Virus record (IMG/VR): IMGVR_UViG_2695420699_000002
Span: 1 to 6,288 of that record
Origin: a virus
Lineage: Duplodnaviria > Heunggongvirae > Uroviricota > Caudoviricetes
DNA: 6,288 nt
Direction: 5' to 3' (one strand)
Each line of letters begins with the position of its first letter. The first letter of the stretch is position 1. This document shows, piece after piece, positions 1 through 6,288 of this stretch. The notes beneath the pieces are model-generated. The model searched no databases. It had not been told where the DNA came from and saw only the letters and a program-made list of their open reading frames with translations. The position numbers and the translations under genes were made by a program.

Positions 1-2
1 CA

Positions 3-698
3 GCCTTCATCAGTGGTAAGGCACCGGAAATCAAACCCTCGCCCGGCGGCAACACGCCATCGGGGCCGTCTGAAGATGCATCCATACGCACAATCTCCCT
101 GATGCCGACAGCCGGAGATGCTGCTGCGCAGGGCTGGACCATTAAGGACGGCGGAATTCAGTTGTCAGATGGTGTATTTAAGATCACCAAGCAGAGCAAT
201 AAAACCTGGTCCCTGACGCATCCGGTGGATGACGCAATTACCCTGCTGACACAGGGCGGCAGACTGACCTGTAAGTTCCGCCTGTCAGGCGCACTGACCA
301 ACAATCAGTTCGGTCTGGGAATTTATCTGTATACCGATGTAGCGTTACCTGACGTCGTGGCGATGACCGGGACTGGTAACCCGTTCCTGATGTCGTTCTT
401 CACCCAGACCACAGACGGCAAACTGAATCTGATGCATCACAAGAAAGCAGGAAACACAAAGTTGGGCGAGTTCGGGAATTACAGTAACGACTGGCAGACG
501 CTGGAGCTGGTGTTCACCGCCAGCAGTGCCACGGTTACTCCGAAACTGAATGGAGTGGCTGGCCCGGCATTCCAGGTCATAAAAGACAGTCTGACACTGG
601 GGCTGAATGCACTGACGCTGACGGATATTACCAAAAATGCAACGTATGGCGTTGAGATAGAAAGTCTGGTGCTGGAAATAAATAGTCCTGCAGCGTAA
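3..698 (+). CDS. Hypothetical protein, 5'-partial (C-terminal beta-rich domain after a Pro/Ser/Gly-rich linker); possible accessory/moron gene upstream of R
   Basis: Frame 3 is open from position 3 to TAA at 696-698 with no stop, so the gene probably starts upstream of the window. The ATG at 102 has no Shine-Dalgarno upstream and is probably internal. Residues before it (KAPEIKPSPGGNTPSGPSED) look like an interdomain linker. The downstream sequence is rich in T/S/G/N/L with alternating hydrophobic patterns, typical of a beta-sandwich, but I recognise no family. Hand-counted GC is roughly 45-52 percent versus about 58 percent for R-I. Confidence 0.55.
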   Translation, partial: AFISGKAPEIKPSPGGNTPSGPSEDASIRTISLMPTAGDAAAQGWTIKDGGIQLSDGVFKITKQSNKTWSLTHPVDDAITLLTQGGRLTCKFRLSGALTNNQFGLGIYLYTDVALPDVVAMTGTGNPFLMSFFTQTTDGKLNLMHHKKAGNTKLGEFGNYSNDWQTLELVFTASSATVTPKLNGVAGPAFQVIKDSLTLGLNALTLTDITKNATYGVEIESLVLEINSPAA

Positions 699-721
699 GG
701 AAGAACAGGAGAGCAAAACAG

Positions 722-1189
722 ATGCTTAAGACAAACAGCCTCCGGAAGGGCATGATTCATGGGTGTCGCTGGTGTCAGGCCAACCCGGAAAAATTCACCA
801 TTTTCGTGGAGAGCGGCAACATTGAAACGACCGGAGAAACGCCCTCGTTTGTTTACCGCTATCAGATGGTGATGTTTGTCATGGATTACGCCGGGGAGCT
901 GGACGACCTCACGCTGCCGCTACTGGCGTGGTTATCCGAAAATCAGCCGCAATTGTTGCTTAATCCGGAGCGTAATCAGGACATCAAATTCTCCGCCGTT
1001 ATCAATGACGATGACAGCGCCGATCTCCTGTTTACGCTCCCTCTGCGGGAACGCGTTCGCATCACGCGCAGCAGTCAGGGGGCACCGCAGGCAGAACACC
1101 TGCAGGAGCCAAAACCCCGTCTGCCATCTTCCGAAGGCGACTGGTCGCATGTATTCCAGGATGTGACGTGGGGTGAAAGCGATGGATAA
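722..1189 (+). CDS. R: Phage tail completion protein R (P2 gpR-like)
   Basis: 155 aa ORF, the same size as P2 gpR, with a similar N-terminus (MLK..SLR) and sitting immediately upstream of S-V-W-J-I-H. AGGAG at 707-711 precedes ATG 722. Stop TAA 1187-1189 overlaps the S start (ATGGATAA). Confidence 0.75.
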   Translation: MLKTNSLRKGMIHGCRWCQANPEKFTIFVESGNIETTGETPSFVYRYQMVMFVMDYAGELDDLTLPLLAWLSENQPQLLLNPERNQDIKFSAVINDDDSADLLFTLPLRERVRITRSSQGAPQAEHLQEPKPRLPSSEGDWSHVFQDVTWGESDG

Positions 1190-1817
1190 GGCATTCACCC
1201 GCGTGGATGAAACCTTTGAGGCTATCCGCGACAGCCTGAATCAGCAGGCCATCAATAACATCGCCAGAAAGCTGGCACAGGATTTACGCCGCGCCCAGCA
1301 GGCGCGTATCCGGTCACAGAAAGCGCCGGACGGGACCGCGTGGACACCACGCAGACGCCGCGTAACCCGGATACAGGAGCGCATTCGCTTTATCTGGAAT
1401 AACGAAGCACGCACGCTGAAAAACTGGCATCACGACACGGGGAAATACGGGCGAACCATTACCGGGTGGGATGAGGATAAAAACAATATCCGCACGTTTT
1501 ACCGGGATGACATCGACCGCTTTCTGGAAATACGCACCCGGCGCATCAACCAGGACAGCACAAAGCGCGTCCCCATGTTCGTAAAACTGCGCACCGCCCG
1601 CTACCTGAAAGCCCGTGCAGATGCTTCCGGTGTGACGGTGGGTTACAGCGGCGTGGCCGCACGTATTGCCCGCGTTCATCAGTTCGGTGAGCGCGATCAG
1701 GTTGCGCCGGGCATTTTCACCGATTACCCGGTACGTGAGCTGTTGGGCATCAGTCAGGCAGATGAACGCCTGATTTATAACACGGTGCTGGGCCGGATTG
1801 CGGAGGCTGTACGGTGA
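1182..1817 (+). CDS. S: Phage virion morphogenesis / tail completion protein S (P2 gpS-like)
   Basis: Contains motifs remembered from the gpS family (QKAPDGTAWTPRRR; ARIARVHQFG). ATG 1182 is preceded by GGGGTGA and overlaps the R stop; an alternative GTG start at 1173 is in the same frame. Stop TGA 1815-1817 overlaps the V GTG start. Confidence 0.8.
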   Translation: MDKAFTRVDETFEAIRDSLNQQAINNIARKLAQDLRRAQQARIRSQKAPDGTAWTPRRRRVTRIQERIRFIWNNEARTLKNWHHDTGKYGRTITGWDEDKNNIRTFYRDDIDRFLEIRTRRINQDSTKRVPMFVKLRTARYLKARADASGVTVGYSGVAARIARVHQFGERDQVAPGIFTDYPVRELLGISQADERLIYNTVLGRIAEAVR

Positions 1818-4167: not shown

Positions 4168-6210
4168 ATGAGTACCACAACACGAAAATTTAAAACCGTT
4201 ATCACCGATACAGGTGCAAAAAAATTAGCTCAGGCAGCCGCGCCAGATGGTAAGCCTGTCCGCCTGACTCATATGGCCGTGGGCGACGGTGGCGGCGCGT
4301 TGCCCACACCAGACAGTAAGCAGACCCGTCTGGTGCATGAGGTGTGGCGACACACTGTTAATCGCGTCATCCTGGACGCAACACATCAGAACCGCATTAT
4401 TGCGGAGCTGGTTATTCCTCCAGAAACGGGCGGATTCTGGATCCGGGAAATTGGTGTGTTTGATGAGCACGGCGATTTAATCGCGGTGGGCAATACTGCC
4501 GAAAGTTACAAGCCAGCCGTTGCCGAAGGGTCCGGACGTGCACAAACATTTCGCACCATTCTGACCGTATCCAGCACTGCCACTGTGGCGCTTACCGTGG
4601 ATAACACCATGGTGATGGCCACAGTGGATTACGTGGATAACAAACTGAAAGAGCATGAACAGTCACGATGTCACCCGGATGCCTCGCTGACCGCAAAAGG
4701 CTTTGTTCAACTCAGTAGCGCCACTAACAGCGATTCTGAAACGCTGGCTGCAACGCCGAAAGCGGTTAAGGTCGCGTATGATCTTGCTAACGGAAAATAT
4801 ACAGCGCAGGATGCCACAACAGCGCGAAAAGGCCTTGTCCAGCTTAGTAGTGCAACCAACAGTACATCTGAAACGCTGGCGGCAACATCAAATGCAGTAA
4901 AAGCTGCCTATGACAATGCTGAAAAACGTCTGCAGAAAGCTAAGAATGGTGAGGATATCTCTGATAAAGACACCTTTACGAAAAATATCGGTGCCTGCCG
5001 TGCATATAGTGCAGAGCTGAATATTGGTGGAGATAGTGAAGCATGGACAACTGCGCAGTTGATTTTTTGGCTAGAGAGTCAGGGGGCATTTAACCATCCT
5101 TACTGGATGTGCAAAGGCTCATGGGCTTATGCAAATAATAAGGTCATTACAGATACAGGTTGCGGAAGTATTTGTCTTGCAGGTGCTGTTGTGGAAGTTA
5201 TTGGCACCCGCGGCGCAATGACCATACGCATTACCACACCGAGTACATCCAGCGGTGAAGGCATCCCTAATGCTCAATTTACTTATATTAATCATGGTGA
5301 TGCTTATGCTCCTGGCTGGCGAAGGGACTATAACTCCAGGAATAAGCCAACAGCATCAGAGATCGGGGCGTTACCGTCAGATGGGACAGCAGTATCGTCA
5401 GTTAATCTGGCTTCAAAAGGTCGGCTGACCGCCCTGACAGATAATATGCAGGGGGCCACAGGTCTGGAGTTATACGAGGCGTATAACAACGGATATCCAA
5501 CAACGTATGGAAATATCATTCACCTGAAAGGGATGACAGCCGTTGGCGAAGGCGAATTACTCATCGGCTGGAGTGGTATAAGCGGTGCTCATGCTCCGGC
5601 ATTTATTCGTTCACGACGGGATACGACCGACGCAAACTGGTCGCCGTGGGCGCAGCTTTACACCTCGGCTCATCCTCCTGAAGAGTTTTATCCAGTCGGT
5701 GCACCGATTCCGTGGCCATCAGATACCGTTCCGTCTGGTTATGCCCTGATGCAGGGGCAGACTTTTGACAAATCTGCATACCCGAAACTTGCAGTCGCTT
5801 ATCCGTCAGGCGTTATTCCTGATATGCGTGGCTGGACGATTAAGGGCAAGCCCGGCAGTGGTCGTGCCGTATTGTCTCAGGAACAGGACGGCATTAAATC
5901 GCACACCCACAGCGCCAGCGCATCCAGTACGGATTTGGGGACGAAAACCACATCGTCGTTTGATTACGGTACTAAAACGACCAGTTCATTTGATTACGGC
6001 ACAAAAACTACGAATAGCGCTGGAAATCATTCACACAATATACCTGTTGGTCACACTGGCGCGGGGAATGGTGTATCAGCCGGTTATAACGCTGCGTTAG
6101 GTACTGGTACCACGTCGAGCGCAGGCGAGCATGCTCACAATGTATATATCGGTGCCCATAACCACACTATCGGCATTGGTGCTCATGCCCATTCTGTCAT
6201 TATTGGTCCC
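4168..6210 (+). CDS. H: Tail fiber protein H (P2 gpH-like), 3' end interrupted by IS insertion; reading frame runs on into the IS with no stop inside the window
   Basis: ATG 4168 lies 2 nt after the I stop. The N-terminus ([19 protein letters not shown]...MAVGDGGG...HEVWR...[34 protein letters not shown]) matches the conserved baseplate-attachment domain of P2 gpH. Further down are two copies of the tail-fiber repeat motif, a tail-collar-like segment ([10 protein letters not shown]...YPKL...IPDMRGW) and an HxH array. Frame 1 has no stop from 4168 to the window end; native sequence ends at 6210 where the IS terminal repeat begins. Confidence 0.85.
4696..4914 (+). repeat. Two in-frame copies of the phage tail-fiber repeat motif (about 87 bp each, 132 bp period) within H
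   Basis: Copy 1 from 4696 ([29 protein letters not shown]) and copy 2 from 4828 ([29 protein letters not shown]). The nucleotide copies differ at several synonymous positions. Confidence 0.75.
5941..6018 (+). repeat. 30-bp tandem repeat (about 2.6 copies) encoding the decapeptide (G)TKTTSSFDY within H
   Basis: 5941-5970 acgaaaaccacatcgtcgtttgattacggt; 5971-6000 actaaaacgaccagttcatttgattacggc; 6001-6018 partial third copy. Copies differ mainly at synonymous sites (tcgtcg versus agttca for Ser-Ser). Confidence 0.75.
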
Positions 6211-6288
6211 TGGATTTGCCCCTATATTTCCAGACACCTGTTATCACTTAACCCATTACTGGCTTGCTGCCGTAGATATTCCCGTGGC
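6211..6288 (-). mobile_element. Partial IS2-like insertion sequence (IS3 family): terminal inverted repeat and adjacent transposase 3' end, extending beyond the window
   Basis: From 6211 the sequence TGGATTTGCCCCTATATTTCCAGACACCTGTTATCACTTAACCCATTAC... closely matches, from memory, the reverse complement of the IS2 right end (TGGATTTGCCCCTATATTTCCAGACATCTGTTATCACTTAACC...), with a few mismatches. It abruptly replaces tail-fiber coding sequence. Confidence 0.75.
6222..6288 (-). CDS. IS2-like transposase OrfB (InsD-like), C-terminal fragment; 5' part lies outside the window
   Basis: The - strand translation ends ...[21 protein letters not shown] with stop TAG (complement of 6222-6224), closely resembling the remembered IS2 InsD C-terminus ...[22 protein letters not shown]. 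Confidence 0.65.

Follow-up and report, generated by a model that had tools for sequence, protein, structure and literature searches.

The open reading frame (ORF) at the left end of the window, by which we mean the whole 6,288-nt stretch of viral DNA analysed here, very probably encodes the linker and C-terminal lectin-like domain of a NanS-p-type 9-O-acetyl-sialate esterase, an optional late-operon gene that lies between lysC and the tail gene R in a P2-like (Xuanwuvirus/P88-type) Escherichia coli prophage. NanS-p, a 9-O-acetyl-N-acetylneuraminate esterase, is encoded on Stx and other lambdoid prophages (PMC10462455, PMC8065619). The family is already named and biochemically characterised, and structures exist both for a chromosomal catalytic homologue (PDB 3PT5) and for a phage C-terminal domain (PDB 6YP6). 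The main yield of the analysis is therefore a resolved annotation: an ORF that had been described from its letters alone as unassigned and without recognisable resemblance turns out to be the carbohydrate-binding-type tail of NanS-p.

The ORF is open from base 3 to its stop codon and comprises 231 sense codons, while the other two plus-strand frames contain 12 and 18 stops over positions 1-698 (Table 1). As the original prediction had it, the frame runs open to the window edge and begins with a Pro/Ser/Gly-rich linker, these three residues making up 46% of its first 35 residues (AFISGKAPEIKPSPGGNTPSGPSEDASIRTISLMP). The 196 residues after the linker consist to 35% of Thr, Ser, Gly and Asn and gave the predominantly beta model described below, again in keeping with what had been read from the sequence; the identification of the next gene as tail gene R was likewise confirmed. 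The antisense ORFs at 345-716 and 479-760 are regarded as spurious, with no opposite-strand coding sequence annotated in the prophage regions of E. coli SCU-105 and O104:H4 that were examined, and a search of positions 1-1300 for structured RNA returned no Rfam match at E<=0.1.

Table 1. Features at the left end of the window (positions in the 6,288-nt stretch)
Feature	Position	Strand	Details
Probable nanS-p-type sialate O-acetylesterase gene, 3' end	1-698	+	Frame 3; TAA 696-698
Pro/Ser/Gly-rich interdomain linker AFISGKAPEIKPSPGGNTPSGPSEDASIRTISLMP	3-107	+	Joins esterase domain to C-terminal domain
C-terminal domain, predicted lectin-like jelly roll (ConA-like), 'CTR4' type	108-686	+	phmmer against PDB, AF2, Foldseek
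PF20350 (DUF6645) core	246-578	+	Window residues 82-192; 72.0 bits against a gathering cut-off of 27; E=5.6e-20
Span with three of the four aligned aromatic-site positions	309-401	+	Alignment with vb_24B_21 (phi24B)
Spacer to gene R, 23 nt	699-721	+	AGGAG ribosome-binding site 707-711
Tail completion gene R	722-1189	+	Pfam PF06891, E=1e-37
Gene S	1173-1817	+	Pfam PF05069

The upstream continuation of the ORF could be read in a close relative. Over its first 6210 bases the window differs by 1 base from the E. coli SCU-105 chromosome, which carries a 99.9%-identical prophage, and there the ORF forms the end of an intact 1878-nt coding sequence for a protein of 625 aa (WP_112933288.1). The ORF corresponds to residues 395-625 of this protein, with the 5' 1180 nt of the gene outside the window. 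Three Pfam domains score above their cut-offs in the full-length SCU-105 gene product, namely DUF1737 (PF08410) at residues 4-53 (28.7 bits against a cut-off of 24; outside the window), the SASA carbohydrate esterase domain (PF03629) at residues 75-271 and DUF6645 (PF20350) at residues 476-586. This combination is the architecture of NanS-p, the prophage sialate O-acetylesterase. Residues 69-388 match E. coli NanS (YjhS; 3PT5, E=2e-121), with 69% identity between the catalytic domain and this sialate-specific enzyme, and residues 430-622, all of which lie within the window ORF, match the PDB entry 6YP6, 'NanS-p', in a phmmer search of the PDB (E=1e-30). The linker is bounded by the end of the first match and the beginning of the second. 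In addition, the serine of the GQSN motif (S82) and the C-terminal H368, both outside the window, are conserved when the protein is aligned with NanS and with phi24B NanS-p. Since the window starts 6 residues past the end of the NanS match, it contains only the second linker and the C-terminal domain, and none of the catalytic domain. The full-length protein also matches phrog_143 of PHROGs, where the function is listed as unknown, while no NCBIfam model matches it.

With only a 5'-truncated ORF in the window, and with frameshifted copies of the gene occasionally found elsewhere (in L009 and L010 it is split into pieces of 108 aa and >300 aa), we considered that the ORF might be a decaying remnant or a chance reading frame; related readings take it for a lysis-protein extension at the C-terminus, or for a late protein from the conserved core of the P2 family. 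We consider this group of explanations extremely improbable, and for the close relatives of the window it is already refuted. Coding sequences of 625/626 aa are intact in SCU-105 and O104:H4, and the gene is annotated as a coding sequence in all of the matches listed. The part that lies in the window appears to be under purifying selection, and its confident structural model matches a solved fold (6YP6). An extension of a lysis-region protein, which the original prediction had entertained, is ruled out because the gene is a separate coding sequence with three Pfam domains of its own and its own ATG, which overlaps the lysC stop codon. For the source genome of the window, where the start codon falls outside the analysed stretch, we infer an intact gene from the 99.9%-identical relative.

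To characterise the C-terminal domain we aligned it with diverse members of its family and used the alignment to build an AF2 model. The resulting model was almost all beta, with a mean pLDDT of 92.7, and a Foldseek search of the PDB placed 6YP6 at the top (TMq 0.89, rmsd 2.1 A over 208 columns, 36% identity, E=1.9e-20). At far lower ranks followed 2W68, the sialic-acid-binding domain of the Vibrio cholerae sialidase (TM 0.60), together with the botulinum neurotoxin Hc domain (BoNT Hc) and legume-type lectins. The fold is the lectin-like jelly roll treated by Franke et al. (2020, J Struct Biol 212:107596) on the basis of 6YP6, and the window domain is thus, on the modelled structure, a putative non-catalytic carbohydrate-binding module. 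This agrees with the earlier suggestion of a possible carbohydrate-binding domain. According to the review PMC8065619, experimental demonstration of sugar binding by the C-terminal domain is absent for every NanS-p. The domain family is small: a query of 1.84 billion representative proteins with the C-terminal domain yielded 57 matches, many of them fragments. The literature searched contained no mention of 'DUF6645'.

A carbohydrate site has been proposed for phi24B NanS-p that consists of the aromatic residues Y510, Y515, Y540 and F611 (PMC10462455). These align to F497 (positions 309-311), Y502 (324-326), F527 (399-401) and L593 (597-599) of the protein studied here, so that three of the four positions are aromatic and two tyrosines are replaced by phenylalanine. 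With F/Y/F/L in place of Y/Y/Y/F at the aligned site, the ligand preference of the window domain may differ from that of phi24B. The amino acid identity of the C-terminal domain to the crystallised phi24B type is 36-38%, with several short indels, compared with 90% to the alleles of phage 434 and Stx1a and 93% to the allele of Stx2 phage 86, which has been classed as C-terminal region type CTR4 (Pascal et al. 2023). The lectin-like domain, as a representative of this non-crystallised 'CTR4' type with an altered putative site, would therefore be a natural comparator in sugar-binding tests.

We also compared substitution rates between alleles. For the C-terminal domain dN/dS was 0.22-0.24 in comparison with the alleles of 434, Stx1a and the P2-like type of O104:H4, and 0.43 in comparison with phage 86, whose allele is the closest. 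For the whole part of the gene in the window it was 0.24-0.26 against three close alleles and 0.49 against phage 86. In the esterase domain dN/dS was 0.10-0.15. These values suggest that the C-terminal domain is under purifying selection, less tight than that on the esterase domain.

In the SCU-105 prophage, which is complete, the genes run in the order portal, terminase, scaffold, capsid, gpM, gpL, X, holin, M15 endolysin, LysB (DUF2570), LysC, nanS-p, R, S, V, W, J, I, H and G, followed by the tail sheath, tube, tape-measure and D genes. The nanS-p-type gene is embedded in the late operon, its ATG overlapping the lysC stop and R starting 23 nt past its TAA, behind an AGGAG motif. The closest named phages belong to the Xuanwuvirus (P88-like) Peduoviridae, and two of these, 520873 and P884B11, match the flanks and carry no gene at the site; in phage 520873 lysC is directly followed by R. 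Alignments of the junctions showed the sequence change ~50 nt before the lysC stop and ~48 nt into R, with the first ~48 nt of R (722-769) diverging from the empty-site phage 520873 and marking the right-hand mosaic boundary of the insert. Across 5426 complete E. coli genomes, the filled junction, in which the window's C-terminal domain is joined to R, was found in 375, including O104:H4 outbreak strains, ST131, O26, O103 and O111, and the empty lysC-R junction in 689. These counts, together with the syntenic relatives that have an empty site, indicate that the gene is optional cargo rather than a core P2 late gene. A conserved core protein, the case that had been named as refuting the original prediction, is ruled out, as the site is empty in more genomes than it is filled and the gene is missing from it in most relatives. 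The expectation of an accessory or cargo gene variably present between the lysis cassette and R is thereby borne out, and it gains further support from the ~90% identity of the esterase and C-terminal parts to genes of unrelated lambdoid phages.

The more specific idea of a moron held up only in part. The gene is optional between syntenic relatives, but neither signals of its own nor a distinct composition were found. A crude consensus scan for promoters gave only weak 9-of-12 matches, in numbers not above those in shuffled sequence, and no plus-strand terminator was detected after the gene, including the spacer at 699-721, terminator-like counts again not exceeding those of shuffles. With its start coupled to lysC and an ordinary composition, the gene falls outside the strict definition of a moron. 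The ORF had also been called compositionally distinct, with a GC content lower than that of the genes R to I and suggestive of horizontal acquisition. Its GC content (0.535) is indeed below that of R-I (0.55-0.60), but it matches the values of three other genes in its prophage, those for portal (0.536), terminase (0.541) and capsid (0.537), and its GC3 of 0.62 falls inside the R-I range of 0.585-0.705. For the nanS-p-type gene GC is 0.535-0.537, inside the prophage range of 0.50-0.61. The nucleotide composition of the ORF is ordinary for its prophage, and a foreign origin can be ruled out as a conclusion from composition, since both GC and GC3 stay within the prophage's own range.

Comparison with other alleles revealed that the gene is a mosaic of domains. 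Relative to the NanS-p proteins of phage 434 and Stx1a, amino acid identity is 92% in the SASA domain and 89% in the linker, but only 31-32% over the first 68 codons, which encode DUF1737 and the first linker. Against lambdoid alleles, these 68 codons share 23-32% of amino acids and 48% of nucleotides, and megablast homology begins exactly at the DUF1737/SASA boundary. Between the two P2-like alleles of SCU-105 and O104:H4, identity is 100% over these 68 codons, against nucleotide-level values of 87% in the SASA domain and 92% in the C-terminal domain. The P2-type N-terminal segment occurs in 376 E. coli genomes, in nearly all as a single copy (median 1, maximum 3), and among the matches listed it adjoins lysC wherever lysC is annotated. 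The part of the gene in the window, in contrast, was found at 6798 places in 2448 genomes, with up to 12 per genome. Among phage records, nearly all homologues belong to lambdoid phages. The P2-type DUF1737 variant was present in 3 of 50,697 phage records, all of them Peduoviridae, and a search for distant relatives of this module retrieved only near-identical E. coli fragments and the three Peduoviridae records. On these alignments, recombination with lambdoid nanS-p copies evidently reaches the esterase and lectin parts, while the DUF1737 module stays with the P2-like chassis. This side result may be new.

A protein with a chassis-bound N-terminal module in the midst of a structural late operon could conceivably be a component of the virion, its DUF1737 docking on hexons of the P2-like capsid and displaying the esterase and lectin domains on the particle, where they would bind or modify sialoglycans of mucus or of the cell surface. 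A precedent exists in phi24B, whose NanS-p (gp84) was identified as a capsid decoration protein; cryo-EM and proteomics put its DUF1737 on hexons, as a hexamer on the central hexon of the T=9 facets, and its C-terminal domain is shed by slow autoproteolysis, with the equivalent linker reported as a cleavage site (preprint 10.64898/2026.04.10.717836). This virion-bound homologue calls into question the picture of NanS-p as a 'soluble public-good enzyme'. The restriction of the DUF1737 variant to the P2-like context, its invariance while the remainder of the gene recombines, and the existence of a few family members with DUF1737 and DUF6645 but no esterase are all consistent with a place in the particle. 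However, the chassis-specificity is explained equally well by an N-terminal segment too divergent, at 48% nucleotide identity, to recombine with lambdoid alleles. In addition, the 'tooth' residue Tyr42 of phi24B aligns to Thr43 here, with W45 and Y46 nearby, and the phi24B protein binds solely the flat hexon at the centre of the T=9 facet. The P2 capsid has T=7 geometry without a flat facet-centre hexon, and P2-like phages are not known to carry a decoration protein, both of which count against a virion component. We therefore consider a structural role of this kind unlikely. It would be compatible with the enzymatic role, and both could hold together. Were it true, a myovirus prophage would gain a mucus-binding and mucus-modifying particle, Peduoviridae would have their first known decoration protein, and there would be evidence for a match between DUF1737 modules and capsid types.

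A further possibility, raised for NanS-p in the review PMC8065619, is that the protein aids infection, its esterase and lectin domains deacetylating host O-antigen or capsule for receptor access in the manner of tailspike deacetylases. The gene adjoins tail genes, as might be expected on that account, but Pfam detects DUF1737, SASA and DUF6645 only and no domain for attachment to tail or baseplate, and the 69% identity of the catalytic domain to sialate-specific NanS also speaks against it. The 689 empty sites, with gene-less relatives common, indicate that the gene is not needed for infection. We consider an infection aid very unlikely, clearly more so than a virion component.

For the esterase that we favour, a working scheme can be proposed by analogy with its homologues. 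P2 late operons are Ogr-dependent. On this paradigm, nanS-p would be co-transcribed with genes for head, lysis and tail completion upon prophage induction, and expressed only then. Its N-terminal sequence is without a hydrophobic leader and has no evident signal peptide, so phage lysis would be the expected way out of the cell for the protein. Once it is released, its SGNH/SASA domain would take O-acetyl groups off Neu5,9Ac2 and mucin sialoglycans, as is known for homologues, and the deacetylated sialic acids would then be usable by sialidases and the E. coli Nan pathway, while the C-terminal domain in the window is proposed to tether the enzyme to sialoglycans.

Published work on the homologues is in line with such a scheme. 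NanS-p proteins de-O-acetylate Neu5,9Ac2 and mucin glycans, permit growth on them and are strongly induced with late genes (PMC8065619, PMC5923452), nanS-p being among the most strongly induced of these (PMC8065619). Every NanS-p allele tested from EDL933 and O104:H4 C227-11 is reported to be an active esterase, including all five NanS-p enzymes of C227-11 phi-cu (review PMC8065619). We found the P2-like allele type in O104:H4 C227-11, whose genome contains five nanS-like places; since its five NanS-p proteins are all reported as active, the P2-like allele type has probably already been assayed as an esterase.

NanS-p has already been linked to the growth of pathogenic E. coli on the O-acetylated sialic acids of gut mucin, and our results indicate that this metabolic or colonisation gene is very probably carried by P2-like prophages as well, a location for which the literature searched contained no paper linking nanS-p to P2-like phages. 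They also suggest that the gene is a domain mosaic, with an N-terminal module locked to its chassis and esterase and lectin parts shuffled among up to 12 copies per genome. Both points, the location on P2-like prophages and the mosaic of domains, add modestly to the literature searched.

Finally, we compared the gene with known systems. It is closest to the NanS-p proteins of lambdoid and Stx phages (z1466/L0105 of 933W; vb_24B_21, or gp84, of phi24B; and those of H-19B, 434, Stx1a and Stx2 phage 86), with which it shares the three-domain architecture and a late-gene position beside lysis genes. In those phages, however, the gene lies between Q/stx and the holin gene, whereas here it follows the lysis cassette in the order lysC-nanS-p-R; the carrier is a P2-like myovirus prophage, whereas the known carriers are lambdoid phages; and the DUF1737 module is of a separate type that is restricted to the P2-like context. 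The crystallised C-terminal domain of phi24B (6YP6) shares its fold with the window domain but differs in its site residues. Likeness to chromosomal NanS (3PT5) is limited to the catalytic domain outside the window, because the chain of 337 residues aligns only to residues 69-388 and so covers neither DUF1737 nor the lectin domain, leaving no counterpart in the window. With 2W68 and other ConA-like lectins, which are non-catalytic sugar-binding beta-sandwiches on sialic-acid-active enzymes, the resemblance is at the level of the fold only (TM about 0.5-0.6, ~14% identity, rmsd >5 A). Among P2-type phages, the classical cargo genes (old, tin and Z/fun, and cdt-V in P2-like prophages) are likewise optional genes within a conserved gene order. 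Classical P2 morons are located near cos/Q or between G and FI, and the nanS-p-type gene differs from them in its insertion site, its embedding in the late operon, the lack of detected signals of its own and its ordinary composition.

At its N terminus, the nanS-p-type protein encoded by P2-like prophages has a DUF1737 module that is a distinct variant: across codons 1-68, its amino acid identity to the alleles of lambdoid phages is ~31-32%. We found this P2-type variant in 376 genomes, where, among the matches listed, it lies only beside lysC of P2-like prophages. In two prophages the module is 100% identical at the nucleotide level, while their esterase and lectin parts are just 87-92% identical.

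Comparison of filled-site phages (lysC-nanS-p-R) with empty-site phages (lysC followed directly by R) revealed differences that reach ~17 codons into the 3' end of lysC and ~16 codons into the 5' end of R. Since the end of lysC and the start of R both differ by site type, the exchanged segment slightly exceeds the esterase gene and intrudes on both neighbours.

Coordinates of features in the window and in the P2-like prophage region of E. coli SCU-105 (L001), with a further locus (L007)
Feature	Position	Remark
Right edge of exchanged segment, start of R	window 722-769	
Left edge of exchanged segment, end of lysC	L001:13770-13824	
DUF1737 module, 5' end of nanS-p-type gene	L001:13821-14030	outside window
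Gene S	window 1173-1817	
Serine O-acetyltransferase gene	L001:21922-22494; also L007:24105-24677	opposite strand
ParM-type segregation ATPase and partitioning/stability protein genes	L001:3662-4937	early region

The multi-copy esterase region evidently disrupts short-read assemblies. The majority of database homologues of the nanS-p-type gene (protein matches P0001-P0044) are partial and lie at contig ends, and two assemblies carry the gene split into ORFs of 108 aa and >300 aa (L009:4001-5412 and L010:4001-5253). The phage records of vB_EcoM-569R5 and 705R2 have termini that fall within this gene.

The true compositional outlier of the prophage is the serine O-acetyltransferase gene, with a GC of 0.346. 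Located ~600 nt past the right end of the window and flanked by the tail-fibre assembly gene G and tail genes, it occupies the site where P2 phages classically carry their Z/fun cargo. That one phage should bear both an acetyltransferase and an O-acetyl esterase is curious. The genes for the ParM-type segregation ATPase and the partitioning/stability protein are maintenance genes of plasmid style, observed here inside an integrated chromosomal prophage.

Within the window, GC drops to 0.46-0.50 in the tail-fibre gene H (within 4168-6288), and the sequence, having differed from SCU-105 by just 1 base, diverges completely from base 6211; the receptor-binding tip looks to have been swapped. Gene S comprises 214 codons counting from the first GTG (211 in the SCU-105 annotation). 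The best stretch for the 148-position Pfam Phage_tail_S profile covers only residues 124-206, indicating a long additional N-terminal part relative to the family model.

Finally, in some database homologues (P0054 and P0076), DUF1737 is fused to DUF6645 with the esterase domain missing between them. If the phi24B result, a preprint describing the DUF1737 of gp84 (NanS-p) as a hexamer on capsid hexons, generalises, such proteins would be capsid-anchor and lectin modules alone.
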